Positions 1 through 12,306 of a stretch of 12,306 nt of DNA are shown one piece after another. Origin of the DNA: a virus; IMG/VR virus record IMGVR_UViG_3300029240_000049; one strand, 5' to 3'. How positions within the stretch are numbered: the first letter of the stretch is position 1; every line of letters begins with the position of its first letter. The notes under the pieces were generated by a model. That model did not search any database and was not told the origin of the DNA. It saw only the letters and a list, made by a program, of their open reading frames with translations. The position numbers were made by a program, and so were the translations under genes.

Positions 1-95
1 GTAACATATCCGTGACTGACGGACACGTGTCTCCCCACGGTGGACACCATGTGTGCGTGAACGGTGGACACCATGTGTGCGTGAACGGTGGACAC
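1..95. repeat. Left inverted terminal repeat (ITR-L)
   Basis: Bases 1-78 are the exact reverse complement of 12229-12306. Identity continues to base 95 with 3 mismatches (positions 79, 85, 86). Contains a perfect 10-bp palindrome GACACGTGTC at 22-31. Confidence 0.97.
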
Positions 96-96
96 C
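37..96. repeat. Tandem 24-bp direct repeat (2.5 copies) inside ITR-L carrying GGTGGACAC motifs
   Basis: ACGGTGGACACCATGTGTGCGTGA at 37-60 is repeated exactly at 61-84, with a partial third copy at 85-96. The GGTGGACAC core lies at 39-47, 63-71 and 87-95, exactly 24 bp apart. Confidence 0.95.
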
Positions 97-121
97 TGGT
101 ACCGGGAACCAGGTACCGGGC
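95..121. repeat. GGTACC-containing direct/palindromic repeat cluster at the inner edge of ITR-L
   Basis: GGTACCGGG occurs at 98-106 and 112-120. CCTGGT (95-100) can pair with ACCAGG (108-113). GGTACC is itself palindromic, so several alternative hairpins or cruciforms are possible. Confidence 0.8.
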
Positions 122-138
122 AATAAGTTAATCTAATG

Positions 139-207
139 TACCACACAATTTTCATATAAATTTCTTATTTATATAAAAACTATTGTTTTATATGAAATTG
201 TGTGGTA
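139..207. repeat. Long AT-rich inverted repeat (candidate operator) spanning the early promoter
   Basis: TACCACACAATTTTCATATA (139-158) matches the reverse complement of TATATGAAATTGTGTGGTA (189-207). The arms are 19/20 nt with a one-T bulge, separated by a 30-nt AT-rich spacer. The right arm overlaps the spacer and -10 region of promoter P1. Confidence 0.8.
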
Positions 208-211
208 TACT
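183..211 (+). promoter_or_regulatory. Candidate early sigma-A-type promoter P1 (extended -10)
   Basis: -35-like TTGTTT (183-188), 17-nt spacer, TG (203-204) + n + TATACT (206-211). Located about 30 nt upstream of the first RBS and ATG (242) in the only sizeable left-end noncoding region. Confidence 0.6.
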
Positions 212-241
212 TAATAAAACAATTTTACAGGAGATGACACA

Positions 242-445
242 ATGGAACGATACAGGATCATTAACGGGCAGCGGTGTGAGTTGCACCACATGGCAACGGC
301 CCGTGGCTACATCAGTCGTAAGGCGGTCGAGGTGGTGGAGGAGTATACCGGAAGGTTTGGCACGGGATACATAGTACGTTATCCCCGTTTTGATACCACC
401 AACTATCATTATGTGGCCTATTATATTAAGGAGGAAAGTAAATGA
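242..445 (+). CDS. Small early protein of unknown function (67 aa)
   Basis: AGGAG at 229-233, about 8 nt upstream of ATG 242. The stop overlaps the next start (ATGA at 442-445). No motif I recognise. First gene after P1. Confidence 0.6.
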   Translation: MERYRIINGQRCELHHMATARGYISRKAVEVVEEYTGRFGTGYIVRYPRFDTTNYHYVAYYIKEESK

Positions 446-657
446 GCGTTGTGAAGTTTGTCGAGGAGCGTAAGACGTTGCAGAGCGTGTTTTTGGAGCT
501 ACATCCTAATGCCCCAAGAGATGCAGCGGGATTGCTGACAGTATGCCCTAACTATTTAGACCCTGGCGTTAGGTGTGTTGATAATGACACCGAAAGAAAA
601 ATTAAGAGTTGTGATGATTGCTGTCGCGCGTTTTGGATGCAGGAGGTAGAGTTATGA
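442..657 (+). CDS. Small Cys-rich early protein (71 aa), possible zinc-binding
   Basis: Strong RBS AAGGAGG upstream of ATG 442. Five Cys in the C-terminal half (CPNYLDPGVRC...SCDDCCRAFW). The stop overlaps the next start (ATGA at 654-657). Confidence 0.65.
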   Translation: MSVVKFVEERKTLQSVFLELHPNAPRDAAGLLTVCPNYLDPGVRCVDNDTERKIKSCDDCCRAFWMQEVEL

Positions 658-1346
658 AAGTTTTAGTTGCTTGTGAAGAAAGTCAGGAGGTGTGCAAGGC
701 ATTCCGTGCGTTAGGGCATGAGGCATATTCTTGCGACGTCCAGGAACCTTCCGGCGGTCACCCCGAATGGCATATTTGCGGAGACGCCCTTAAGGCGATT
801 GAGGGTGGGGTCGTCACCACCATGGACGGGCAGACACATGATGTTAACAGCTGGGATTTGTTGATAGCACATCCTCCATGTACATACTTGACTATTACAG
901 GGAATCGGTGGTTTAATATTGAAAGGTATGGGAGAAAGGCGGTTATTCGGTGGCAGTTGAGGGCAGAGGCGGCAATTTTTTTTATGTCCTTTATAAAATC
1001 CGATGTCCCTAAAATTGCAGTCGAAAATCCTGTCGGATGCATGTCCACATATTATAGAAAGCCTGACTGTATTATACAGCCGTATGAATTTGGACACCAC
1101 GCAAGGAAAAAGACCTGTCTATGGCTAAAGGGGTTGCCCAGTCTCCAGCCAACAAACATTGTCGATGCTGGAGAGATTATGCCCGGTGGGTATAGCGTGG
1201 GGGCTAACGCTGACTGTGCAAGAGATGAGACGGGAAAAATTTTGCGATGGAATGATCCACGAACGGCCAAGGCAAGAAGCAAAACTTTTCCGGGAATTGC
1301 CAAGGCTATGGCCGAACAGTGGGGAGGTGTGAACGATGCCCTATAA
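654..1346 (+). CDS. Divergent DNA (cytosine-5) methyltransferase-like protein
   Basis: Start taken at ATG 654 (GGAGG 643-647) rather than the ORF-track start at 618. HPPCTYL (Cys codon 879-881) resembles C5-MTase motif IV (PC). VENP (1020-1031) resembles motif VI (ENV). The N-terminus MKVLVACEESQ replaces a canonical FxGxG SAM loop. As I recall it, this layout matches a phage-borne family usually annotated as DNA cytosine methylase. Confidence 0.55.
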   Translation: MKVLVACEESQEVCKAFRALGHEAYSCDVQEPSGGHPEWHICGDALKAIEGGVVTTMDGQTHDVNSWDLLIAHPPCTYLTITGNRWFNIERYGRKAVIRWQLRAEAAIFFMSFIKSDVPKIAVENPVGCMSTYYRKPDCIIQPYEFGHHARKKTCLWLKGLPSLQPTNIVDAGEIMPGGYSVGANADCARDETGKILRWNDPRTAKARSKTFPGIAKAMAEQWGGVNDAL

Positions 1347-1860
1347 ACCGTACCGTAATTTTAAGTGGTCAATATCCACTTACTATCCCGGTGCTTTGGC
1401 CGAACGATCCGAAAAAGAGCTGCGGCAAGAATACGCCAGATTACGGGCAGTTGCCCAGAAGTCAATACAGCGTTTAGGTAAAAGCGAGTTTGCCGGTGGT
1501 GTAACATACCGCAATGCTGTGGGGCGGTTTCCGCAGACCAAGAGCATCAAAGACAAGCGTGAATTGGCTATGGCCCTTGTGGACATTTCCAGATTTTTGT
1601 CTGCAAAGGGGTCGTCGGTCAGCGGCCTTAAAGAGATCAGGGCGGAACAGGTCAACACATGGCAGAATCAGTATGGATACGGTTTCGTAAATGCCGCCAA
1701 TTATTCGGCATGGGTGGATTTTCTGGAGGTAATGAAAGATTCTATCGGTTTTGTATATCAGAAAGTCAGGAATCGCCGGTATATGAATACCGCAGATGCA
1801 CAGGCAAGAAAAGCAGATGTTGAACAAAAGTTCCGTGTTTTTATGAAAGAAAGGGGCTGA
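1336..1860 (+). CDS. Candidate terminal protein (174 aa)
   Basis: GGGGAGGTG RBS; the start overlaps the MTase stop by 11 nt. Lies immediately upstream of the polymerase module, as the TP gene does in phi29-type genomes. The basic N-terminal helix EKELRQEYARLRAVAQKSIQRLGK resembles, from memory, the phi29 TP segment DKAEYARLVKNTKAKIARTKKK. The function is inferred. Confidence 0.45.
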   Translation: MPYKPYRNFKWSISTYYPGALAERSEKELRQEYARLRAVAQKSIQRLGKSEFAGGVTYRNAVGRFPQTKSIKDKRELAMALVDISRFLSAKGSSVSGLKEIRAEQVNTWQNQYGYGFVNAANYSAWVDFLEVMKDSIGFVYQKVRNRRYMNTADAQARKADVEQKFRVFMKERG

Positions 1861-1864
1861 TGCT

Positions 1865-1933
1865 ATGTGGTTTTTTCTTGCGATTCTTGGTACTTGTTTG
1901 ATTTTCTACAAATTCGGAAAGGGGGAATGGTGA
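1865..1933 (+). CDS. Hypothetical hydrophobic mini-ORF (22 aa, MWFFLAILGTCLIFYKFGKGEW)
   Basis: Below the ORF-track size cutoff; read manually. AAAGGGG lies about 8 nt upstream of ATG 1865. One predicted TM-like stretch. The stop overlaps the next mini-ORF start. Confidence 0.3.
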   Translation: MWFFLAILGTCLIFYKFGKGEW

Positions 1934-2025
1934 TGATTTACGACACCGCAACTTTTCCCCTTTTCGGAATTTGCCAAAATAAAGCCGGAAAAGCGAAAAT
2001 CAGGCAATCCAGCCAGCCGGAGTGA
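1927..2025 (+). CDS. Hypothetical upstream mini-ORF (32 aa) preceding the polymerase
   Basis: Strong SD AAGGGGGAA directly upstream of ATG 1927 (ATGGTGATGA overlap with the previous stop). It stops at TGA 2023-2025, 10 nt before the polymerase TTG start. It may serve only for translational coupling. Confidence 0.3.
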   Translation: MVMIYDTATFPLFGICQNKAGKAKIRQSSQPE

Positions 2026-2035
2026 AAAGCGGTAT

Positions 2036-3931
2036 TTGGATATCGTTACCGCTTTTGACATTGAAACAAGCAAGCTGCCGGAACAGGATCAAGCTATTAT
2101 GTATATCTGGCAATGGCATTTTGATGGTATTGGTATACTTATAGGCCGAACGTGGCGGGAGCTGCGCATGTTTATAGAACGGTTGGCACGGATCATAGGA
2201 GATGAATATACATTAGTTGTTTTGGTGCATAATCTCTCATATGAGTTTCAATTTCTTCGTACGATCTATGACTTTACTGCTGATGACGTATTTGCATTAG
2301 ACCGCCGCAAAGTGTGTAAATGCACTATGTATGATAAAGCGTTGGAATATCGCTGCACCTATATACATTCCAACATGTCGTTGGCCGCATACACCAAAAA
2401 GTTTAACGTGGAACACCAGAAGCTATCTGGTGATGAGTTTGACTACAAGGTTATACGCTATCCGTGGACACCGCTTACAGATCGTGAGTTGGAATACTGC
2501 TATAATGATGTTATTGGCCTTGTGGAAGCCTATAAAGCGGAAATGGAAATGGACGGCGACAATCTTGCTACAATGCCGCTGACCTCAACAGGCTATGTAC
2601 GGCGAGACGTGAAGCGGGCTATGCGGGTCTGTGGGACAAAGCGTGTATTAGAAGCACAGCCGACTTTGGAAGTGTACCAGCTTTTAAAAGAAGCGTTCCG
2701 GGGTGGTGACACACATGCAAATAGATTTTACACCGGGAAGATCATACCCAATGTGAAAAGCGCGGACAGGTCATCGTCATACCCTGACGTGTTGGTGAAT
2801 TGCAAATTTCCGTTGACAGAGTTTCGCCCGGCAGGTGGATTGACAATCTCGAATCTGATAAAGGCCAAACGTGCGTTTTTGTTCCGGGCAAAATTTACCG
2901 GTTTCCGGCTGCGCGATCCGTACTGGGGTTTTCCGTACATATCGCGGTCAAAGTGTCGTCAGATCATGAATCCCTATGCGGATAACGGTAGAATTTTAAG
3001 TGCTGACTATCTGGAAACAACTTTGACGGACGTTGACTGGAAAATTGTCAAGAAGCAGTACACATGGGATATGGTGGAGGTGACAGACCTGTATTACAGC
3101 AGATATGGATACCTGCCTAATCCGTTGGTTACGACATGCATCGAGTATTACCGCGACAAGACAACGTTGAAAGGCGCACCAGAGGGCAGCTATGAAGCCA
3201 TGCTATATGGCAAGAAAAAAGCTTTGCTAAACAGCATCTATGGCTGCATGGCACAAGATCAATGTAAACAGGGTATCATTTTTGACGGTCAGAATTTTTT
3301 AATAGACGATAAGCCTATTACAGAGCTGCTGGACAAAAACAGTAAAAGAGCGTATCTGTGTTATGCGTGGGGCGTTTGGATAACAGCATGGGCACGGCTG
3401 CGCTTGCAAGAGGGTTTGGAGCTGGCCGGTGATGGTGCTATATATTGTGATACCGATAGCGTTAAGTATGTCGGAGATGTCGACTGGACAGCATACAATA
3501 CAAAGCGTATAAAATCGTCTACAAGGTCAAGCGCTTATGCTGATGATCCAGCCGGTGAACGTCATTACATGGGCGTTTTTGAGTACGAGGGGTCATATGA
3601 TGAGTTTAAGACCCTCGGTGCAAAAAAGTACGCATATACCCAAAACGGGAATTTGCATATAACAATTTCCGGCGTTGAGAAAAGGAAAGGAGCTGACGAG
3701 TTAAAAGCCGCCGGAGGACTTGAAGCCTTTAAGGAGGGCATGGTTTTTATAAAAGGAGGTGGAACCGAAAGCATTTATAATGACGATACCCCATGCAGCA
3801 CGATACAGATAGACGGCCATGATTTGGAAATAGGGCCTAACATCTGCATCAAAGACAGCACATATACCGTTGGTCTGACTGCCGACTATTTAAGAGTGCT
3901 GGAAAAACCTGACAGAATTTATTGTGTTTAG
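2036..3931 (+). CDS. Family B DNA polymerase, protein-primed (phi29 gp2-like) type
   Basis: Exo I DIET (2057-2068), Exo II YCYNDV, motif A DRSSSYP (2765-2785), motif B KALLNSIYG (3218-3244), motif C YCDTDS (3443-3460), KKYAY motif. The context (ITRs, phi29-like virion genes) implies protein priming. The only in-frame start after the upstream stops (1931-1936) is TTG 2036, with a weak or distant SD. Confidence 0.95.
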   Translation: MDIVTAFDIETSKLPEQDQAIMYIWQWHFDGIGILIGRTWRELRMFIERLARIIGDEYTLVVLVHNLSYEFQFLRTIYDFTADDVFALDRRKVCKCTMYDKALEYRCTYIHSNMSLAAYTKKFNVEHQKLSGDEFDYKVIRYPWTPLTDRELEYCYNDVIGLVEAYKAEMEMDGDNLATMPLTSTGYVRRDVKRAMRVCGTKRVLEAQPTLEVYQLLKEAFRGGDTHANRFYTGKIIPNVKSADRSSSYPDVLVNCKFPLTEFRPAGGLTISNLIKAKRAFLFRAKFTGFRLRDPYWGFPYISRSKCRQIMNPYADNGRILSADYLETTLTDVDWKIVKKQYTWDMVEVTDLYYSRYGYLPNPLVTTCIEYYRDKTTLKGAPEGSYEAMLYGKKKALLNSIYGCMAQDQCKQGIIFDGQNFLIDDKPITELLDKNSKRAYLCYAWGVWITAWARLRLQEGLELAGDGAIYCDTDSVKYVGDVDWTAYNTKRIKSSTRSSAYADDPAGERHYMGVFEYEGSYDEFKTLGAKKYAYTQNGNLHITISGVEKRKGADELKAAGGLEAFKEGMVFIKGGGTESIYNDDTPCSTIQIDGHDLEIGPNICIKDSTYTVGLTADYLRVLEKPDRIYCV

Positions 3932-3946
3932 AAAGGGATTATTATC

Positions 3947-4363
3947 ATGAAAAAGAGCACCAAGAGCACCAAGAGCACCAAGAGCACCAAGAGCACCAAG
4001 AGCACCAAGAGCACCAAGAGCACCAAGAGCACCAAGAAGATCAAGCCGATTCGGGTTTCCAGCATGTCCATTATTCGCGCCACGCCGTATGAGGATATGT
4101 ATTTTTTTGACATGATCCTTAACGGTATCAGCATTTACGGCTGTAAGCTGATCGAGGGCGAAAACGGCCGGTTTATCGGGTTCCCGTCCAAGAAGCCTGC
4201 CGAGAAAGGCGGCAAGTGGTATAATCACTGCTGGGCGCCCCTGTCCGAAGACGATACCGCAGAGATCATCGCTGCGGTGCTGGAAGCCTGTGACGAGGAC
4301 GAAGACGTGGACGAAGACGTGGACGAAGACGAGGACGAAGACGACTTACCTTTTAAGGAGTAA
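3947..4363 (+). CDS. Chimeric nucleic-acid-binding protein: basic (KST)x9 N-terminus + SpoVG-like core + acidic SSB-like C-terminal tail
   Basis: The core [62 protein letters not shown] resembles, from memory, SpoVG ([32 protein letters not shown]..P....KIQ.AVL). The C-terminus is about 22 residues that are almost entirely D/E (two V interspersed), ending DDLPFKE. The N-terminus is MK(KST)9KKIKP. Confidence 0.7.
3953..4033. repeat. Nine perfect tandem copies of a 9-bp unit AAGAGCACC (encodes KST)
   Basis: Units start at 3953, 3962 ... 4025, with no substitutions. A partial tenth unit (AAGA) follows. Confidence 0.98.
4292..4345. repeat. Imperfect 12-bp tandem repeat (GACGAAGACGTG-like, about 4.5 copies) encoding the acidic tail
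   Basis: GACGAAGACGTG at 4298-4309 and 4310-4321, with variants at 4322-4333 and 4334-4345 and a partial copy at 4292-4297/4300. Confidence 0.85.
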
Positions 4364-4365
4364 CA

Positions 4366-5388
4366 ATGGGACTGTATCTGCATAGCGGCTATGTAGATAT
4401 CCCGTGGGTGCTGTCCGGTCACCTGCCATTTGTAATAATGGTGGGTGGCCGCGGCACCGGTAAGACTTTCGGTGTGCTGGAATATTTCCGGCAATCGGCG
4501 GTTGATACCGGTAAGCGGTTTATCTACCTGCGCCGCCGCCCTGATGAGACGCGAACAACGGGCATACCGGAGTTGTCGCCGTTCAAGAAGCTGGATGAAT
4601 ACCACGGCTACAACACATTAACAAAAAAGATGGGTAAAGACTGCTACGGTTTTATTGATGAGGAGAGACAGCAGCTTATAGGTTATAGCATGGCTTTGTC
4701 TACCTTTGCAGATGTCCGTGGTATTGATGCGTCAGACGTACAGGCAATCATTTTCGACGAGTTCATCCCGGAACGGCACCGCAGGCCGATAAAAGACGAA
4801 GCAGCAGCATTTTTTAATGCTGTGGAGACGGTCAACCGTAACCGTGAGCTGTCCGGCGGACCTCCTGTACAATGTGTACTGCTATCCAATGCTAACTTGA
4901 TGGGCAATCCTATTTTTCTGGAATTGGGTATTGTCGGCAGGGCTGTCAAAATGTATAAATCAAAAACGGAGATTTATAAAGACGCGGAACGCGGTCTGTT
5001 TCTGGCAATCTTGCAGCGCTCCCCTATTTCGGAAAAGAAAAAAAAGGAAACAGCGCTGTATAAGTTGACAGCCGGTACAGGTTTTGCGGCTATGGCCGTT
5101 GACAACGACTTTTCGGAAGAATGCACAAATCCAAGAACGGCGGTGTTGAAAGAGCTGCGGCCAATTTCCAGCGTGGGCGAAATTACTATTTACCGCCACA
5201 AATCGGAAAAATGGCTATATGTCTCGAGCCATAAGTCAGGATCACCGGAGGAATACAGCAGCGGGTCTATTGATCTATCGCGTTTTCGCATACGGTATAG
5301 TTGGCTTGTGTCGGCCTATTTTTACAAGCAGGTATTTTTTGAAGATTTTTTGTCTGAACTGCTATTCAAAAAGTACATGGATTTGTGA
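4366..5388 (+). CDS. DNA encapsidation (packaging) ATPase, phi29 gp16-like
   Basis: Walker A GGRGTGKT (4444-4467) and Walker B IIFDEF. The N-terminal context VIMVGGRGTGKTF...GKRFIYLRRRPDE mirrors, from memory, phi29 gp16 FVIGARGIGKSY...GEQFIYVRRYKPE. At 340 aa it is similar in size to gp16. RBS AAGGAG. Confidence 0.9.
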   Translation: MGLYLHSGYVDIPWVLSGHLPFVIMVGGRGTGKTFGVLEYFRQSAVDTGKRFIYLRRRPDETRTTGIPELSPFKKLDEYHGYNTLTKKMGKDCYGFIDEERQQLIGYSMALSTFADVRGIDASDVQAIIFDEFIPERHRRPIKDEAAAFFNAVETVNRNRELSGGPPVQCVLLSNANLMGNPIFLELGIVGRAVKMYKSKTEIYKDAERGLFLAILQRSPISEKKKKETALYKLTAGTGFAAMAVDNDFSEECTNPRTAVLKELRPISSVGEITIYRHKSEKWLYVSSHKSGSPEEYSSGSIDLSRFRIRYSWLVSAYFYKQVFFEDFLSELLFKKYMDL

Positions 5389-5394
5389 AAAAAA

Positions 5395-5423
5395 TTGACA
5401 AATGTGCATGGCTGGTATACAAT
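5395..5423 (+). promoter_or_regulatory. Near-consensus sigma-A promoter P2 (candidate late promoter)
   Basis: TTGACA (5395-5400), exactly 17-nt spacer, TACAAT (5418-5423). Shares the TGGTATAC string (5413-5420) with P1. Located in the 144-nt gap between the ATPase and holin genes. Confidence 0.75.
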
Positions 5424-5429
5424 AAAGGA

Positions 5430-5506
5430 GGTAGTGGCAGCGGCCATGCACAGCCCCGGAAGGGCGGCCATGCGCGGGTGCAGCGCACGAGCTGCCATTA
5501 CCACCA
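5430..5506 (+). ncRNA. GC-rich structured RNA element at the predicted 5' end of the P2 transcript (5' stabiliser, regulatory leader or candidate pRNA-like RNA)
   Basis: A 12-bp helix pairs 5430-5441 (GGTAGTGGCAGC) with 5491-5502 (GCTGCCATTACC), with one G-U. It encloses two predicted hairpins: GGCC/GGCC plus GCCC(5453-5456)/GGGC(5462-5465), and TGCGC(5471-5475)/GCGCA(5483-5487). There is a 10-nt direct repeat GCGGCCATGC at 5440-5449 and 5464-5473. The element is followed by ACCA. Folding was done by eye only. Confidence 0.4.
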
Positions 5507-5532
5507 GACCTATTTTATAAGGAGGATATATT

Positions 5533-5730
5533 ATGGACACTAACGCAATCATTCAGTTGGTCAGTACCCTGGGGTTTCCTATCGTCTGCTGCGGTGCGCT
5601 GTTCTGGCGCATGGTCAAGTCCGACGAGCAGCACAAGACAGAAATGGACAAGTTTTCGGAGGCCCTGAATAACAACACTGTTGTTATGACACGTCTATGC
5701 GAAAGGATGGGCGATGATGGCCACATCTAA
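5533..5730 (+). CDS. Holin, BhlA/UviB-like (65 aa)
   Basis: RBS AAGGAGG 7 nt upstream. A single N-terminal TM (IIQLVSTLGFPIVCCGALFW) is followed by a charged coiled C-terminus (KSDEQHKTEMDKFSEAL), the BhlA/UviB pattern as I recall it. Lies immediately upstream of, and overlaps, the endolysin gene. Confidence 0.75.
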   Translation: MDTNAIIQLVSTLGFPIVCCGALFWRMVKSDEQHKTEMDKFSEALNNNTVVMTRLCERMGDDGHI

Positions 5731-6376
5731 AAAAATTAAGATCGCCCTCAGCCCGTCCGATCAGTACAGAAACTTGTACGCATACGGGGACACCAACGAG
5801 GGCTACCAGATGCACTGTGTAGCGGATAAGCTGGTGGAGCATCTTCTGCGCTGCGGTGTGGATGTTGTGTATCTGCCCAGCGGCTATCTGTCAGATCGTG
5901 TCAGGAAAGCAAATATGGCACATGTAGACGGCTATATTGCTCTCCACACCAACGCTTTTGACGGGTCTGTACAGGGAATCCGGGTGCATTGTTACCCGTC
6001 CGACAAAAGCCGGAAATTTGGAAAGTGCATCATGGCCGCACTTGATACGGTGTATGATGGGTCTACCAAATCTAAAATCGTGGAAACTGACAGCCTGTAC
6101 GAGCTCAAATACCCGTTTGCACCGGCAATTCTGCCGGAAATTGGTTTTCATGACAACATTGACGATGCCGAATGGATTGTCAACCACGTTGACCAGATCG
6201 CCGAAGCGCTGGCAAAGGGCATCTGCGAGCACTTCAAAATGCCGTATGTTGCACATGTAACAATCATGTATCACGTGCAGGTCGGGGCATTTGAGAAGCT
6301 GGAAAACGCGGAAAAAATGCTGGCGACTGTGAAACAGGACTACCCGAATGCTTTTATTAAGGAGGTGAGAACATGA
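5714..6376 (+). CDS. Endolysin: N-acetylmuramoyl-L-alanine amidase (Amidase_3-like) with a short C-terminal SPOR-like module
   Basis: YIALHTNAF...GIRVHCY and AILPEIGFHDN motifs are typical of Amidase_3 / PlyPSA-CwlC-type amidases. The C-terminal YHVQVGAFEKLENAEKMLATVKQDYPNAFIKEV is SPOR-like. It overlaps the holin by 17 nt; the start at 5714 or 5717 is ambiguous. Confidence 0.85.
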   Translation: MMATSKKIKIALSPSDQYRNLYAYGDTNEGYQMHCVADKLVEHLLRCGVDVVYLPSGYLSDRVRKANMAHVDGYIALHTNAFDGSVQGIRVHCYPSDKSRKFGKCIMAALDTVYDGSTKSKIVETDSLYELKYPFAPAILPEIGFHDNIDDAEWIVNHVDQIAEALAKGICEHFKMPYVAHVTIMYHVQVGAFEKLENAEKMLATVKQDYPNAFIKEVRT

Positions 6377-6747
6377 CATACAAGGACATTTTGGCGCTTG
6401 CTCATGCCGGTTATAGCGCCGACCAAATCGGACAGCTGGCTATGCTGGAGCAGATGCCCGCGCCTGCTACACCTGCGACACCTGCCGCGTCTGCCGCGCC
6501 TGCTGCACCTGCTGCACCTGCGACACCTGCCGCGCCTGCTGCACCTGCGACACCTGCTGCACCTGCGACACCTGCTGCACCCGCTGCCCCGTTTGACTAT
6601 CAAGCTATGATGGGTGAGCTGCTGGGTATTAAAAATGCAATCCAGACCGGCAATGTGCAGACCAGCCAGCAGCCGAAGCAGCCTATGACGGCAGATCAGA
6701 TTTTGGCAAATATCATCGCCCCGAAACCTATTAAAAAGGAGGAATAA
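6373..6747 (+). CDS. Candidate scaffolding protein with a central Pro/Ala/Thr low-complexity linker (124 aa)
   Basis: ATGA overlap with the endolysin stop. Lies directly upstream of the major capsid gene, the position of phi29 gp7. Small, with helical-looking N- and C-terminal ends. The function is inferred from position. Confidence 0.5.
   Translation: MTYKDILALAHAGYSADQIGQLAMLEQMPAPATPATPAASAAPAAPAAPATPAAPAAPATPAAPATPAAPAAPFDYQAMMGELLGIKNAIQTGNVQTSQQPKQPMTADQILANIIAPKPIKKEE
6457..6591. repeat. Imperfect tandem repeats encoding a 45-residue (P/A/T/S) tract
   Basis: Reiterated CCTGC(T/C)GC(A/G)CCTGCGACA-like units translate to PAPATPATPAASAAPAAPAAPATPAAPAAPATPAAPATPAAPAAP. Confidence 0.9.
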
Positions 6748-6749
6748 CA

Positions 6750-7979
6750 ATGGCAACTGTAAATGACATGGTGATAAATCAGGCCGGTACAATCCTGACG
6801 AGCCTTGTAAAGCAGGCGACCGGCCAGACGGTTATTACGCCCACTAACTCCACGGAATTTGTCAGTGTGGCGACCACGGCACTAAAAACGGGCGTTGATC
6901 CTATCATCAACGCACTGTCCCAGATGTGGGGCAGAACCATTTTTTCCCAGCGGCCCTATACCAGTCGTTTCAAAGGTCTGGAAATGGATATGCAGCGCTG
7001 GGGTAATGCTACCCGGAAAATGTCCGTGGCTGATAAGCCGGTGGAGGATGACGCACGCTTTACGTGGCCTGTGGGCTACAACGCAGATCAGACCCCCGCC
7101 AGCGGTGACGGTAAGAGCGTGGATATGTACACCCTGAATAAGCCCGATGTTTTGCAGACCAATTTCTACGGTCAATCCGTGTACGAAAACAGCTATACGA
7201 TCTTCCGCGACAACCTCGATACTGCGTTTACCGGCCCGGAGGAGTTCATGCGCTTTGTCTCGATGGTGGGTCAGAATCGCGCCGACAAGCTGGTACAGTA
7301 TCGGGAAACCGTGGGGCGCGGTCTGCTGGCCAACTATGTCGGTTCGCTGCTGGCCGAAGCACAGGAAAGCCGCATTGTACATTTGCTGACGGAGTATAAC
7401 GCCCTGACCAATCAGCAGTTGACCGCGCAGACCGTATACATGCCGGACAACTTTACACCTTTTATGCGCTGGGTGTATGCCCGTATCCGCAGTCTGATGG
7501 AGCTTATGCGCGAGCGATCCCAGATGTTCCAGACGGTTATCAACGCAAAGCCTGTCATGCGTCATACCCCGCCGGATCGTCTCAAGCTGTACATGTACGC
7601 GCCTGCCATGGAGATGGTCAAAGCTATGGTGGCGTCTGAAACGTTCCATGATGACCTGATCCGATACACTGACTATGAATCTGTCACGTTCTGGCAGTCC
7701 ATCGAGAAGCCAGACAGTATTTCCGTCAATCCCGTCTATACCGGCACGGACGGAACGGTAAAGACAAAGGTAGGAGACGGAAGCAGCGCAGGCATTGAGC
7801 AGGCCGGTATTTTCGGCATCATGTTCGATGAGGATGCGCTGGGTTATGCGCAGGTCAACGCGTGGAACCAGCTCACACCGTTCAACGCAAAGGGCGGCTA
7901 CTGGAACGACTTCGATCATGTCAATTTCCGCACTATGCAGGACATGACGGAAAAGGGCCTTATTTTGCTGCTGGATTAA
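6750..7979 (+). CDS. Major capsid protein, phi29 gp8-like (HK97-fold family)
   Basis: Strong RBS AAAAAGGAGG. LDTAFTGPEEFMRFVSMV and YWNDFDHVNFRTM resemble, from memory, phi29 gp8 LKTAFVSWGNFESFVSSI and YWNYYYHVWQTL. Size (409 aa) and position fit. There is strong codon bias. Confidence 0.85.
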   Translation: MATVNDMVINQAGTILTSLVKQATGQTVITPTNSTEFVSVATTALKTGVDPIINALSQMWGRTIFSQRPYTSRFKGLEMDMQRWGNATRKMSVADKPVEDDARFTWPVGYNADQTPASGDGKSVDMYTLNKPDVLQTNFYGQSVYENSYTIFRDNLDTAFTGPEEFMRFVSMVGQNRADKLVQYRETVGRGLLANYVGSLLAEAQESRIVHLLTEYNALTNQQLTAQTVYMPDNFTPFMRWVYARIRSLMELMRERSQMFQTVINAKPVMRHTPPDRLKLYMYAPAMEMVKAMVASETFHDDLIRYTDYESVTFWQSIEKPDSISVNPVYTGTDGTVKTKVGDGSSAGIEQAGIFGIMFDEDALGYAQVNAWNQLTPFNAKGGYWNDFDHVNFRTMQDMTEKGLILLLD

Positions 7980-7995
7980 GAAAGGCGGTGTAATC

Positions 7996-9399
7996 GTGGC
8001 TTTTCCGGTCGAACTGTGGAAAATCTCTAAAAAAACCAACAGCACAATGATTCCCGAAAAAGCTGCTGATGCTGTGTACCAGTGCGTTTCCAACGATACA
8101 TTAGATGTCCTCGCCCCGGTATTACCTCTTAATATCGGGGCGGGGACGTACCCCGCACAATACAACTATGCGCATATAGCAGCTTTTGACCGCTATTATT
8201 TTATCACCAACTGGACGTTTCAAAATGGCCTGTGGTACGCTGTCATGACCATTGACGTATTGGCCAGTTGGAAAGCGGAAATCGGAGCGCAAACGCTTTA
8301 TGTGGAGCGCAGCGCGTCCGATTTTACCGGCACAATACCGGACATGACCTATAACAGGACTGCTGACTTTACGGTGACGAAAATCCCGTTTACACTGGCA
8401 AACGCAGATCAGTCAACGTGGAAAATTACAGGCAGTGCAGCCAGCGGTAGCTATGTGGTTGGAATTGTTGGGCAAGGTGGCATAATCAACTATTGGGGAT
8501 TTACGTATGCACAATACCAAGATTTGATGGCGACAGTTTTTAACTATAACTACGGATTCCAAGACGAGCAGCTTAAAGCAAGTTTTAATCCAATACAATA
8601 TTTCACCACCATAATGTGGTTCCCTTTTTCTGTGGCTCAATCCGGAACGGTGGAGGTGGAAATGGGATGGTGGACGATTACCGGCAGCAGCGGATATAAG
8701 CTGGGTAGCAATACATATGTCAGTTATGGCGCGTCCGTCAATCTGCCGAAACACCCACAGCAAGCCCGTGGAAAATGGCTGAATGCTGTGGATACCGCAC
8801 ATTACACTTTACGTCTGCCTTGCTTTGGCATGCTGGATATTCAGGGGTACGACATGATTGACGCAACATCAATCAATATCGAAGTCAACGTTGACCTGCC
8901 AACCGGCAAAGCGACTTGTCTAATCACCCCAAATTCCGCAGGCACGGCAACGCAAGTTGTAGACTATCAGGTAGGCGTATCAATGCCTATTGCACAGTTA
9001 CAGTCCAATATTTTGGGCATGGGTGCAAATACCCTCCGCAGCGCTGGCGGTTTTGGCGCTATGCTGGGTGATGCGCTTGTAGGGGCTGTGCAGGGTGTCA
9101 GCGGTATTCTGGGCGGTATTCCTAAACTGGGTAATATTTCTTTCGGTGATAAAGTTTCAACGTCCGGCGGGCTGGGTGGCCTGAATGATTGCACAATCAG
9201 CGGTATGCTGATTGCCGCATTCCAGATGATTGCGGACGAGGATTTACCAGACCGGGGCAGACCGTATTGTAAGCGTGTGCAGCTTGATAGTCTGGCGGGG
9301 TTTATGATGATCTCTGACCCCGATATTGATATCCCTTGCACCAGCACGGAAACCGCCCAGATTCAAAATCATATGCGTTCCGGGTTTTTCTATGAATAG
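7996..9399 (+). CDS. Tail knob / distal tail tube protein, phi29 gp9-like
   Basis: N-terminal YNYAHIAAFDRYYFITNWTFQNGLWYAVMTIDVLASWKAEI resembles, from memory, phi29 gp9 YSASYIMFQNADYGNKWFYAFVT...EIDVLQTW. A Gly-rich hydrophobic loop lies at 9016-9183. GTG start at 7996 (the exact start is uncertain). Confidence 0.75.
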   Translation: MAFPVELWKISKKTNSTMIPEKAADAVYQCVSNDTLDVLAPVLPLNIGAGTYPAQYNYAHIAAFDRYYFITNWTFQNGLWYAVMTIDVLASWKAEIGAQTLYVERSASDFTGTIPDMTYNRTADFTVTKIPFTLANADQSTWKITGSAASGSYVVGIVGQGGIINYWGFTYAQYQDLMATVFNYNYGFQDEQLKASFNPIQYFTTIMWFPFSVAQSGTVEVEMGWWTITGSSGYKLGSNTYVSYGASVNLPKHPQQARGKWLNAVDTAHYTLRLPCFGMLDIQGYDMIDATSINIEVNVDLPTGKATCLITPNSAGTATQVVDYQVGVSMPIAQLQSNILGMGANTLRSAGGFGAMLGDALVGAVQGVSGILGGIPKLGNISFGDKVSTSGGLGGLNDCTISGMLIAAFQMIADEDLPDRGRPYCKRVQLDSLAGFMMISDPDIDIPCTSTETAQIQNHMRSGFFYE

Positions 9400-9413
9400 G
9401 AGGTGTAAGCAAA

Positions 9414-10328
9414 ATGAAACCGCCGTTTTCCTATGACGAACAGAACATTTTGGCAAGTCATAATTCACCTGGCACCGTGCACAGCCAAAACACAAATCTT
9501 GTGTACTACTACAAGCGTTATCTGCTGCAAAAAGCTATGTCGGTGTTCGAATGGCGACTGCCGGAGACATGGAGCAGGGATTACTTTCTGTATGTGTTGT
9601 ACTGCTGGGGCAACATTGCGGTTATCAACACGGACAAATATGGTGTGATTCCGCAGGGCGGTACGCTGTCCGGCTATGATATCTACTACCAGCCCACCCA
9701 TATACAGATCAGCAATCCGCTGTTGTCTGGTAATCTCTCGCCCCGTATCGGTGTTGACTGTACACTGTTCAAGTTGCAGCCTGACTATGGCGGGATCCTC
9801 GATCTGGTGGGCGACTATGCGGAATTGATGGCGATTGTGTCAGAGACTATCTCCATCAACCTTTTTAACAGTAAGATGTCGTATGTGTTCGCCGCCAGTA
9901 ATAAGACAGCAGCGGAAAGCCTGAAAAAGCTATATGACCAGATTGGGGCAGGCAATCCCGCAGCGGTCATTGACAAAAATCTGTTTAACGATGATGGCAG
10001 TCCGGCATGGCAGGCGTTTTTCCAAAATATCGGGCAAAACTACATTGTAGACAAACTGCTATCCGATATGCGGAAAATCGAATCTATGTTTGATACTCAT
10101 ATCGGGATTCCCAACGCCAACACCGACAAACGGGAACGACTGGTTACAGACGAGGTCAACGCAAACAATGTTGAAACGTACAGTAAATGCTCTTTGTGGT
10201 TGGAATCTTTGCAAGAATCGTGCCGAAAAGCAAACACCATGTTTGGGCTTGATCTGTCGGTTGACTGGCGAAAAATCCCCACAATTCCCGGAGGAGGTGC
10301 AGCCGATGCGAGCGACAATGTCAATTAA
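9414..10328 (+). CDS. Portal / upper collar connector protein, phi29 gp10-like
   Basis: 304 aa (gp10 is about 309 aa). VFEWRLPETW and GIPNANTDKRERLVTDEVNANNVETYSKCSLWLESLQESCRKANTMFGLDLSVDWR closely parallel, from memory, gp10 LFEWENLPPT and [56 protein letters not shown]. Confidence 0.9.
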   Translation: MKPPFSYDEQNILASHNSPGTVHSQNTNLVYYYKRYLLQKAMSVFEWRLPETWSRDYFLYVLYCWGNIAVINTDKYGVIPQGGTLSGYDIYYQPTHIQISNPLLSGNLSPRIGVDCTLFKLQPDYGGILDLVGDYAELMAIVSETISINLFNSKMSYVFAASNKTAAESLKKLYDQIGAGNPAAVIDKNLFNDDGSPAWQAFFQNIGQNYIVDKLLSDMRKIESMFDTHIGIPNANTDKRERLVTDEVNANNVETYSKCSLWLESLQESCRKANTMFGLDLSVDWRKIPTIPGGGAADASDNVN

Positions 10329-10836
10329 AGGCCTGTATGACTACGACCATTCACTGTTTAACGGTATGTCGTGGCCGTCAGGAGTTACAGAAGACGACGT
10401 ATTGCCGGAAATGATGTTAGAACTTGCAGAACTGGAACTACTGTATCCGGCAGCGGAAACCATGAAAAACGCTATCACGGCATGGTCTAAAAGCAGGGTT
10501 TCCGCGTGGAATCGAATCGCCGCGGCACTGAATGCGGAATACAGCCCCATTGAAAACTATGACAGATACGAGGACTGGAACGACAAGGCCACCAGTGAAG
10601 GCGGCTACCTGAATAAAGTTGCCGGTTTTAACGTGGCGGATCAGATGCAGGATCAATCGTCAAGCGAACAATCTACCAACAGCGGCAGCGAGCACAGCGG
10701 TCATATCCACGGCAATATTGGCGTGACAATGGCCCAACAAATGATTAGTGCAGAATTAGATTTGCGCGCTAAAAATGATATGGTGCATATCATTATCAGC
10801 GAGTTTAAGCAGCGGTTTTGTCTGATGGTATATTAA
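10306..10836 (+). CDS. Candidate lower collar / head-tail adaptor protein (176 aa)
   Basis: Start placed at ATG 10306 (GGAGGAGG at 10291-10298, 7-nt spacing), not the ORF-track start at 10090. It overlaps the portal stop by 23 nt. The position after the portal matches the collar genes of phi29-type phages. The conserved-looking C-terminus is HGNIGVTMAQQMISAELDLR. The function is positional inference. Confidence 0.45.
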   Translation: MRATMSIKGLYDYDHSLFNGMSWPSGVTEDDVLPEMMLELAELELLYPAAETMKNAITAWSKSRVSAWNRIAAALNAEYSPIENYDRYEDWNDKATSEGGYLNKVAGFNVADQMQDQSSSEQSTNSGSEHSGHIHGNIGVTMAQQMISAELDLRAKNDMVHIIISEFKQRFCLMVY

Positions 10837-10850
10837 AAGGAGGTTTAATT

Positions 10851-12143
10851 ATGGCATTTAATCAATTCCCATACAGCAATTTTCACGAACTTAACCTTGA
10901 CTGGCTGCTTAACAAGGTTAAGGAAATTGCAGCTGGCATGAATGATCTGGAAACGGCGTTTAAGGCGTTGAAAGAATGGGTGGACAACTATTTCGAACAG
11001 CACGAAGTTGCGGCCACTGTTACCGATATTTTGACAAAATGGCGGGATGACGGTACACTTAAACGCGCGTTGTATGTGCCATTCAAGGCCAGTTGCTACG
11101 GATGGTTGGGCTTTATGTATGGCACAAACATTGCCAAAAATGACGAAATTTTGAACATGGCAAGTACGCGCTATTGTGCGCTGACCGCTGACAACGTGCA
11201 TAAATTTTCCACCGCTGAATTTTATTACAGCGACCGTTTCACCTTTCCCGTGGACATGCCCATAGACCGGGCTATCATTGTAGCAAATACCGATTCACGA
11301 TTTTTTAGCGTGTATAGCTGCAACTATGATACAACACACGTATCACTGGTGCTTGGTACACCCATCAACTACACGTATCCCCTTAACGTTTCCGCCCGTA
11401 TTATGGTCAATGCCCGCAGGGCACACCCCGCCAAATCCCCGAAAAATGGTATCGTAGACGGGGCGACCGGTAATCGCGGTGCGTTGGACTGTGCATTAAG
11501 TTTTCTCCATGCGCGGGAAAGTGGACGAAAATTTGCATATGGCTTAAATTTCATGTATACCACCAGCAATAAACTTAATAACGGTGATGGTGCCGGATTG
11601 GTGGAATGCGACAACATTGCTATGTTTGCCATATTGGGCATTGACTACGACCATTCACCCTACACCAATGACACAGCCGATGCCACTTTTAACTTTGACG
11701 ACCTGGTGGTCAATCCCAAATCCCTGTATCCGTGGACGTCGGTGACCAAAGCGCTGGTAAAACAATCGGCTGGTGCCTGGACTAACGGACTTAATCAGCG
11801 CATCACCAACACAAGCACACTGGGTTGGTGGTGGTGGGACAACAAACAGGTTTTCAGCGACATCACACAGCTGCATGATGGTGACATCGCTATTTTCCGC
11901 AGACCTCCCGCGCAGTCGTCAGAGGGTGTGTATGACACTTCCGGTTTTGACAATATCGGGCATGTCGGAGTGGTTGGTTTGGAAACTGACGGCACACCGT
12001 ATATCATCCATGCGACCATCGAAGAATGGACAGACGGTAATGTGATCGTTAAAACCCCTCTGTCAGATTTTTACAATTTGGCCCCTCTGCGTTATCGCCC
12101 AGAGGACACGTATTTTGCACGCATTGACTTTAGTGCGACGTGA
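10851..12143 (+). CDS. Tail fibre / receptor-binding protein with a C-terminal papain-like (NlpC/P60- or CHAP-type) cell-wall hydrolase module
   Basis: Start placed at ATG 10851 (AAAGGAGG 8 nt upstream). The N-terminal FPYSNFHELNLDWLLNKVKE is a motif I associate with N-terminal anchors of Firmicute phage tail fibres. The C-terminal half has ECDNIAMFAILGI (DCSG.V......GI-like nucleophile context) and GDIAIFR...GHVGVV...YIIHAT (His region). Confidence 0.6.
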   Translation: MAFNQFPYSNFHELNLDWLLNKVKEIAAGMNDLETAFKALKEWVDNYFEQHEVAATVTDILTKWRDDGTLKRALYVPFKASCYGWLGFMYGTNIAKNDEILNMASTRYCALTADNVHKFSTAEFYYSDRFTFPVDMPIDRAIIVANTDSRFFSVYSCNYDTTHVSLVLGTPINYTYPLNVSARIMVNARRAHPAKSPKNGIVDGATGNRGALDCALSFLHARESGRKFAYGLNFMYTTSNKLNNGDGAGLVECDNIAMFAILGIDYDHSPYTNDTADATFNFDDLVVNPKSLYPWTSVTKALVKQSAGAWTNGLNQRITNTSTLGWWWWDNKQVFSDITQLHDGDIAIFRRPPAQSSEGVYDTSGFDNIGHVGVVGLETDGTPYIIHATIEEWTDGNVIVKTPLSDFYNLAPLRYRPEDTYFARIDFSAT

Positions 12144-12187
12144 TTGTCCGCGTAGCTTTAGCACGGTAAAGTGAATAGTGTGTTTCG

Positions 12188-12222
12188 GTGGTGGACATGT
12201 GACAACGTTACGTGTCCACCAC
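12188..12222. repeat. Near-palindromic hairpin at the inner edge of ITR-R
   Basis: GTGGTGGACA (12188-12197) pairs perfectly with TGTCCACCAC (12213-12222). The pairing is extendable to about 16 bp with two G-T/G-U positions around a 3-nt loop (12204-12206). The 5' arm is an extra, oppositely oriented GGTGGACA motif unique to the right end. It lies 45 nt after the last stop codon, with no U-tract. Confidence 0.8.
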
Positions 12223-12270
12223 TCACGTACACATGGTGTCCACCGTTCACGCACACATGGTGTCCACCGT
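12211..12270. repeat. Mirror-image tandem 24-bp repeats inside ITR-R
   Basis: GTGTCCACC (reverse complement of the GGTGGACAC core) lies at 12212-12220, 12236-12244 and 12260-12268, again 24 bp apart. The innermost copy is slightly diverged. Confidence 0.93.
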
Positions 12271-12306
12271 GGGGAGACACGTGTCCGTCAGTCACGGATA
12301 TGTTAC
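12212..12306. repeat. Right inverted terminal repeat (ITR-R)
   Basis: Reverse complement of 1-95 (92/95 identical by manual base-by-base comparison; the terminal 78 bp are perfect). Confidence 0.97.

Follow-up and report, generated by a model that had tools for sequence, protein, structure and literature searches.

The genome of phage phi29 is 19.3 kb long and ends in a 6-nt inverted repeat, AAAGTA (PMC11476376); a recent review of phi29-like phages lists more than 2000 entries, including many 12–14 kb genomes from the human gut (Evseev et al., 2024; PMC11476376). The architecture of the phi29 packaging RNA (prohead RNA, pRNA) and the intermolecular pairing between its CE and D loops have been described (PMC5066667); no pRNA is known outside phi29 and its relatives among the Bacillus phages (PMC5066667; PMC11476376), and the phi29-like phage asccphi28 reportedly lacks a pRNA and has an ATPase that assembles by itself (PMC7823558). 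Here we analyze the 12,306-nt IMG/VR virus record IMGVR_UViG_3300029240_000049 (the window, that is, the whole stretch of DNA under study), a linear phage genome of 12.3 kb with a 95-nt inverted terminal repeat (ITR) at each end, and a 79-nt structured RNA that it encodes at positions 5427–5505 on the + strand. We assign a probability of roughly 0.9 to the window being an essentially complete, strictly linear phi29-type podophage genome from the human gut that belongs to a large, catalogued, but uncharacterized clade of 12–14 kb. The genome as such is ordinary for this well-populated clade; only the conserved RNA stands out, a new, strongly co-varying structured RNA family that is not in Rfam and occurs in most of the clade.

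The window contains 15 plausible genes, all on the + strand (94% coding, 48.5% GC); most of them are preceded by AGGAGG-type ribosome-binding sites, as had been stated in a first-pass annotation made from the sequence alone. The DNA polymerase (PolB; 631 aa with a TTG start, 2036–3931) belongs to the protein-primed, organellar/viral family B, as judged from its matches to PF03175 (E 4e-8, above the gathering score) and phrog_1907 (E 3e-61). The DNA packaging ATPase (340 aa, 4366–5388) is of the gp16 type (PF05894 at E 1e-23, with a concordant PHROGs match), which works without a nuclease or small terminase; a terminase small subunit was not matched by any open reading frame (ORF) in the window. 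The virion genes include a phi29-type major capsid protein (MCP; 6750–7979, PF25622 at E 8e-19), the gp10 connector or upper collar (9414–10328, PF05352 at E 1.5e-30), and a 467-aa tail knob (7996–9399). The knob protein has no sequence-level annotation, and a profile search against the sequences in the PDB found nothing, so its identity was resolved only by structure prediction: the AlphaFold model (53 homologues, pLDDT 81) matches only the phi29 gp9 structures 5fb5 and 5fb4 in Foldseek (E 7e-10, probability 1.0), and this predicted structure confirms the protein as the gp9 tail knob. The genome is linear and its ITRs begin, like the AAAGTA of phi29, with a reiterated base. The PolB, ATPase, capsid (gp8-like), knob, and connector genes named in the first-pass annotation are thus all recovered, as are its holin and lysin (vide infra).

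In sharing the AAAGTA ends, PolB, the gp16-type ATPase, the MCP, a holin, a lysin, the gp9 knob, the gp10 connector, and a weakly supported gp11-like collar with phi29 and other Salasmaviridae (e.g., vB_BveP-Goe6, hereafter Goe6), the window has the phi29 body plan at about two thirds of its length, as had been claimed (12.3 vs 19.3 kb). The differences are that the ITR is longer (95 vs 6 nt), the genes all have the same orientation, no head fibre, gp12 appendage, gp13, or p4 was found and p5 and p6 are not recognizable, the lower collar is shorter (172 vs 293 aa), the terminal-protein (TP) candidate has no detectable similarity to its phi29 counterpart, the N-terminus of the connector is not basic, and no Rfam pRNA is detected. 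Our scans of the window proteins agree with the earlier statement that a head fibre, a gp12-like appendage, and p4 could not be found; for p5 and p6, which were also listed as missing, a SpoVG-like protein (vide infra) is a possible stand-in. No tRNAs were found in the window, and permissive Pfam and NCBIfam scans of its unannotated ORFs returned only noise.

Linear plasmids also carry a protein-primed PolB, and phi29-like phage-plasmids are mentioned in the review, so the window might be a nonviral linear plasmid or a defective or satellite element instead of an autonomous phage. However, genes for the capsid, connector, collar, knob, appendage, packaging ATPase, and lysis are all present in the window, and the cultured 12.3-kb Amedibacillus phages have the same gene order; we regard a plasmid or satellite as highly improbable. 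In the phage that we favor, the gp16-type ATPase would drive the DNA through the gp10-type connector into the phi29-type capsid, only a short lower collar, a gp9-type knob, and a single modular appendage would remain of the tail, and progeny would be released by the holin and an amidase-SPOR lysin. The value of the genome is that of a clean reference: its termini are defined to the base (5'-AAAGTAAC...), its virion genes are assigned by structure, and it shows how far the phi29 body plan can be reduced.

The genome had been described as self-contained and bounded by exact inverted repeats. The repeats are present (1–95 and 12212–12306) and the genome is self-contained, but the two copies are only 97% complementary (they agree over the first 78 nt and mismatch at positions 79, 85, and 86), and the window stops short of the true ends. 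L141, L142, and L143, full-length ENA assemblies of human-gut metagenomes, are 99.8–100% identical to the window; together with a related IMG/VR contig (L003), they provide four independent contig ends at which AAAGTAACATATCC is the terminus, with the consensus 5'-AAAGTAAC. The remaining contig ends fall 1–3 nt or 29 nt short. Because these independent contigs end further out at one fixed base, an AAA is missing from either end of the window, and the full genome therefore measures ~12,312 bp. The first six bases of the completed terminus, AAAGTA, are identical to those of phi29. The sliding-back initiation of phi29 replication uses the reiterated terminal base; by analogy, a terminal protein would prime PolB at the 3'-TTT ends of the ITRs.

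Metagenome assemblers can produce terminal inverted duplications, and the linear form rests on assembled contigs rather than on read-level evidence; if the ITRs were such an artefact, the real genome would be circular, circularly permuted, or concatemeric. However, contigs obtained from separate samples with different assemblers (k127, k119, and scaffolded) share the same terminal base, and, in agreement with the linear structure first proposed, none of the public contigs bridges the two ends or runs past AAAG; the identical hard stop is a strong argument that the genome is linear, that its ends are fixed, and that no artefact is involved. Also, the ITR copies differ at three positions and in repeat copy number between strains, unlike a collapsed artefact; the diverged relatives have their own ITRs (75–299 nt); and the terminus starts with the end of phi29. 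We give an assembly artefact almost no credence. Within each ITR, a 24-nt tandem unit (ACGGTGGACACCATGTGTGCGTGA; 2.5 copies at 37–96 on the + strand, mirrored at 12212–12270) contains the motif GTGGACAC, which occurs three times in each ITR and once elsewhere in the genome; these units may be binding sites of a replication or end-binding protein. The copy number of the unit varies between strains as well as between the two ends of L141.

The first-pass annotation suggested that the genome may represent an undescribed lineage of minimal podophages. In favor of the suggestion, a megablast search of the whole window against 50,697 GenBank phage records (INPHARED) found nothing, the nearest IMG/VR contig is ~90% identical over 79% of the length, and a literature search found no description of this particular phage. 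However, NCBI nr already contains an MCP and an ATPase identical to those of the window, labelled MAG TPA Caudoviricetes sp. (DAE65614.1 and DAE65611.1), the exact PolB is present on ~10 public contigs, and the near-identical L141–L143 contigs are themselves the public counterpart of the genome, so strict novelty is refuted. A scan with an ATPase profile retrieved at least 563 relatives from IMG/VR, nearly all of the best 80 of which are 7–14.8 kb in length; likewise, the ~300 homologues of the tail knob are all on contigs of no more than 14.3 kb. Because identical proteins, many relatives, cultured small phages (10.4–12.3 kb), and a review that catalogues phi29-like phages of 11–14 kb, among them many 12–14 kb gut genomes, all exist, an undescribed lineage is unsupported and, in our judgment, very improbable. 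The window phage, of which many assemblies exist, is instead a new, at best uncharacterized, species-level member of the catalogued 12–14 kb gut clade.

Closest to the window among the diverged contigs are IMG/VR UViG 3300045988_010493 (L001) and L002–L003, with 85–90% nucleotide identity over ~80% of the genome; these contigs carry other sequences in place of the window's left 1.3 kb and last gene. GenBank records of the MT835998 type (human-faecal) have 54% PolB identity and carry the same RNA. The nearest cultured relatives are the Amedibacillus phages AD70P2 and AD70P3 (Guelinviridae in NCBI), which have the same size (12.3 kb) and the same order of TP candidate, polymerase, small genes, ATPase, MCP, knob, portal, collar, and appendage; they differ in sequence (37% identity for PolB, 39% for the ATPase, and 28% for the MCP) and in GC content (27% vs 48.5%). 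The PolB of the Clostridium phage HM2 is 34.5% identical to that of the window, and no GenBank phage record reaches 60% PolB identity. The same core genes are found in Astrithrvirus and its allies (the Salmonella phage astrithr, 11,569 bp; the Vibrio phage K58 g2, 10,390 bp; DU_PP_III of Pectobacterium; and the Acinetobacter phage Phanie), with PolB identities of 33–35%, but these phages have Gram-negative hosts and no intergenic room after the ATPase gene. Because such phi29-like genomes are even smaller, a genome of ~12 kb is not exceptional; several more cultured phages of ~11–12 kb are among the GenBank records.

The first-pass annotation is silent on the RNA at 5427–5505. A near-consensus sigma-70-type promoter (TTGACA-17-TACAAT, 5395–5423, + strand), the best promoter match in the window, and the RNA both lie in the 144-nt gap between the ATPase and holin genes. 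The RNA is a 79-nt three-way junction, as indicated by its predicted fold and by covariance models. A 15-bp outer helix encloses two hairpins; hairpin 1 has two 4-bp stems with a 7-nt bulge between them on the 5' side and ends in a CGGAA loop, and hairpin 2 is composed of a 5-bp stem and a 7-nt loop. The GUGCA of the hairpin 2 loop is complementary to the UGCAC of the hairpin 1 bulge. A search of the window against Rfam at E-values up to 1 returned only a chance match to a snoRNA.

MAFFT was unable to align the RNA across clades, so we used iterative covariance models. The first model (R1) was seeded solely from near-identical sequences of clade A, yet it recovers the diverged clades B and F at E-values of 1e-5 to 1e-8; the second model (R2) recovers L043 at E 2e-9 and matches 60 of the 73 loci that were not used in model building, with one match per genome that is always on the strand of the ATPase gene. 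With the filters off, the searches also reached the MT835998 clade (E 2e-8) as well as L020 (E 1e-6). The members of the family are 68–81 nt in length, with a nearly invariant C-N-G-A-A loop and an outer helix of 10–15 pairs. In an alignment of 56 distinct sequences, 94.4% of the cells at paired positions can pair, compared with ~41% when the partners are slid; changes on both sides are found in 27 of the 28 pairs, and none of 500 shuffles reaches the observed score.

The complementarity between the bulge and the loop also co-varies: in addition to the pair in the window, we find GGUCA/UGACC, GACCA/UGGUC, UAGCA/UGCUA, GUCCA/UGGAC, and AGGCA/UGCCU, with 20 distinct cores in total. A shuffle test of the loop complementarity in single sequences has little power (even the phi29 pRNA gives P = 0.04–0.23), so we adopted a permutation test that compares cognate with non-cognate bulge/loop combinations. 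Cognate combinations have a mean of 4.2 contiguous Watson-Crick pairs, the non-cognate combinations 2.6, and the cognate mean is reached in none of 5000 permutations; counting in fixed columns gives double changes at three of the five positions. Two caveats apply: the 56-sequence alignment was fitted to the model, which inflates the pair counts, and R2 recognizes neither clade D nor AD70P2. We consider it close to certain that the 79-nt RNA is real and conserved.

The context of the RNA is also conserved. A promoter with at least 10 of 12 matches is located directly upstream in 48 of 58 members, and the RNA starts 1–10 nt after it; the Shine-Dalgarno sequence and start codon of the first late gene follow at a median of +28 nt. 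A U-rich tract follows the RNA in only 28 of the 58, so the outer helix and a U-tract were rejected as a conserved intrinsic terminator.

Elements that R2 does not recognize are found at the same position in two other groups. In L021–L040, a different, larger multi-branch RNA is located ~30–180 nt downstream of the ATPase gene (e.g., ~5420–5570 in L021) and has a clean intrinsic terminator behind it; possibly it is a diverged form of the element or has replaced it. In AD70P2 (L047), a TTGACA promoter and a 62-nt three-way junction are found ~33–95 nt after the ATPase stop codon by eye and with RNAfold, as in the window; this junction has an 8-nt 5' bulge (AUAUCCAA), a GGGA hairpin loop, and UCC/GGA complementarity. 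The RNA covariance model has no match in Astrithrvirus and its allies.

With the promoter at 5395–5423, the late genes (5533–12143) would all be expressed as one transcript, the first 79 nt of which would fold into the three-way junction with its co-varying bulge/loop pairing. The linkage of the RNA to the ATPase gene that is seen in most clades is contradicted by the MT835998 clade (clade E), in which the RNA heads an inverted late operon ~8 kb from the ATPase gene. The RNA thus tracks the start of the late operon and not the ATPase gene, so a function as a leader is more likely than a function in packaging like that of the phi29 pRNA. We give an even chance to the RNA being a cis-acting leader that controls the stability, read-through, or timing of the late transcript. 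Phage leader RNAs are known at strong promoters that head late operons, such as the lambda PR'-tR' 6S leader and the HK022 put RNAs. These systems also have a structured RNA right after the strong promoter of a long operon, so a cis role is plausible; the put RNAs are two tandem hairpins, whereas the window RNA is a closed three-way junction with a possible pseudoknot, and no cognate downstream terminators were identified for the window RNA. A leader of this kind would be a compact new cis-regulatory device for phage late transcription. In the MT835998 clade (L005–L015 and L046), the late operon in its entirety runs opposite to the replication genes, with a bidirectional-looking terminator after the ATPase gene, and the RNA has moved with the late operon.

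The alternative is a miniature packaging RNA that would form a ring on the connector by intermolecular bulge/loop pairing, like that of the CE and D loops in the phi29 pRNA, and would scaffold the gp16-type ATPase, after being freed from the late leader by partial termination or processing. The phi29 pRNA sequence that we used for comparison was verified by BLAST (100% identical to V01155.1; the same stretch is annotated as pRNA in Goe6). When this sequence is folded in the same way, the topologies agree segment for segment: the paired ends form an outer helix (A) that closes a three-way junction, a C-E hairpin has a bulge on its 5' side, and the bulge has Watson-Crick complementarity to the loop of a D hairpin. 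In the window family, this complementarity co-varies across 20 sequence types, and the RNA is found in phages that have gp16-type and gp10-type motor parts, adjoining the ATPase gene in most clades. The Rfam pRNA model (RF00044) has no match in the window at E-values up to 1, R2 does not match the annotated Goe6 pRNA even with the filters off, and covariance-model homology is thus missing in either direction; the known pRNAs have only ~12% sequence similarity among themselves, so a failed sequence or model match is not decisive.

Several other observations separate the two RNAs. The phi29 pRNA is longer (117–174 vs 79 nt) and is a separate early gene near the genome end, whereas the window RNA is the 5' end of the late mRNA and, in clade E, is far from the ATPase gene. 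The window family has no conserved terminator; with a following U-tract in only about half of the members, a discrete small RNA is not assured, and the length of the outer helix varies (10–15 pairs). The inner C and D helices are short and of similar height (4 and 5 bp), which would also allow the pairing to be intramolecular, as a pseudoknot. The RKR at the N-terminus of the phi29 connector is an RNA docking site. The connector N-termini in the clade are neutral or acidic, with a net charge of −3 to +1 over the first 15 residues; that of the window starts with MKPPFSYDEQN, compared with MARKRSNTYRS in Goe6, and is not basic. Finally, the motor of asccphi28 shows that a phi29-like packaging ATPase can work without a pRNA. 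We therefore consider a packaging function doubtful and the leader function the better interpretation. Our literature search found no report of a pRNA beyond phi29 and its Bacillus relatives. If the packaging function were true, pRNA could no longer be regarded as exclusive to the Bacillus phi29-like phages, RNA-dependent packaging would be widespread, occurring in hundreds of gut phi29-like phages, and the RNA, at 68–81 nt about one third shorter than the minimal 117–120-nt phi29 pRNA, would be a naturally occurring, minimal scaffold that assembles itself and would interest RNA nanotechnology. The role of the RNA is testable because the cultured Amedibacillus phage AD70P2 appears to carry an equivalent element.

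Downstream of the RNA, the late genes begin with the lysis genes. The 65-aa holin (5533–5730) matches phrog_4898 (E 5e-9). It had been assigned to BhlA, but this membership was not reproduced; the protein matches no Pfam family at E-values up to 0.01 and no NCBIfam family. The CwlC-like lysin was correctly identified: the endolysin (5714–6376) is an N-acetylmuramoyl-L-alanine amidase (Amidase_3, PF01520 at E 5e-17) with a SPOR domain (PF05036 at E 7.5e-5), both above the gathering scores, which is the CwlC-type arrangement. The next gene (6373–6747) encodes a scaffold candidate of 124 aa with a Pro/Ala-rich repeat, named from its position before the MCP gene. The repeat is in tandem (6458–6587, period 9/36/45), and the length of the protein varies among near-identical strains (118 aa in L143). 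In the tail knob, residues 336–393 (9001–9174) form a long, Gly-rich, hydrophobic loop that is predicted to be disordered and that resembles the membrane-active loop of phi29 gp9.

The collar candidate of the first-pass annotation is the 172-aa protein encoded at 10318–10836, in which only an N-terminal motif region matches phi29 gp11. A profile comparison with PDB 6qz9 (E 0.011) and an hhalign comparison with the Goe6 lower collar (E 2e-4) are concordant, both falling in the same Y-(N/D)-P-(I/L)-E-N region; weighing against the assignment, the match spans ~43 columns at marginal significance and the protein is much shorter than the 293-aa gp11. By these sequence comparisons, the protein is a weakly supported gp11 lower collar.

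The last gene (10851–12143) had been called a fibre. Its 430-aa product has three parts: a helical N-terminal anchor, a central beta domain that weakly resembles fibre knobs and lectins, and a CHAP-like peptidase at the C-terminus. The N-terminal ~70 residues are also found on proteins that continue differently, SGNH hydrolases among them. In the C-terminal half, an E-C-D motif is invariant and H371 and H387 are conserved, and two of 10 members of the family match the Pfam CHAP family; against the CHAP assignment, the window protein has no Pfam match of its own, and Foldseek found no significant match for the model of the full-length protein. The best interpretation of the gene is a tail appendage in which binding and a CHAP-like cell-wall peptidase are united; in the virion, the receptor-binding-like beta domain would thus be joined to the peptidase.

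Upstream of the late operon, two small early genes encode proteins of 67 aa (242–445; homologues only in L001–L003) and 71 aa (442–657; a Cys-rich ORF). They are followed by an accessory gene for a 230-aa DNA methyltransferase-like protein (654–1346; phrog_757 at E 2e-62), which has no Pfam, NCBIfam, or PDB sequence match and a homologue only in L044 among the first 47 loci retrieved; the first-pass annotation does not mention this gene.

The TP candidate (174 aa, 1336–1860) had been named earlier, and its position directly upstream of PolB is conserved in 38 loci; Y33 is invariant and, like Y16, a candidate for the priming residue, and the protein matches its positional counterpart in AD70P2 (E 9e-4). 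No link to the phi29 TP was detected: there is no Pfam or PDB connection, and the hhalign comparison with the Goe6 TP gives E 0.26, both of which count against the assignment. We therefore retain the protein as a positional candidate for the terminal protein. The 175-nt noncoding gap between this gene and PolB (1861–2035, + strand) contains a stable hairpin and then a U-run, which is terminator-like and may be an early terminator or attenuator. The gap is conserved in L001–L003 and partly in L004, and is absent in AD70P2, in which the two genes abut. As an alternative pRNA site it was rejected; its appearance is that of an ordinary hairpin terminator of modest stability (z = −2.5).

Between PolB and the ATPase gene, a 138-aa SpoVG-like nucleic-acid-binding protein (3947–4363) has an N-terminal (KST)n repeat and an acidic tail; from these features we suggest it as a possible stand-in for p5/p6. 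The KST repeats are encoded by a perfect 9-nt repeat (3953–4037, 9.4 copies), the copy number of which differs among the otherwise identical L141, L142, and L143, and the acidic tail by a GAC/GAA repeat (4292–4344).

A Bacillota host had been proposed; a monoderm host from this phylum is plausible, probably a member of the Clostridia. The hints are the Shine-Dalgarno sites, a holin-amidase pair for which no spanin was found, the CHAP-like tail enzyme, and the relatives of the endolysin; in an alignment-based scan of bacterial genomes, these relatives are found only in Clostridia (Angelakisella and Oscillospiraceae) with 29–33% identity, and a scan with the single endolysin sequence found nothing. 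The features are generic and the identity of the endolysins is low, which weighs against a firmer conclusion, so the evidence is a class-level hint and not an assignment. Genes that might interact with the host differ between close relatives: in L001, the early left-end module (1–1322) and the tail-appendage gene (10994–12143) are replaced, with the 9.7-kb core ~90% identical, which looks like a modular exchange of host-interaction genes.

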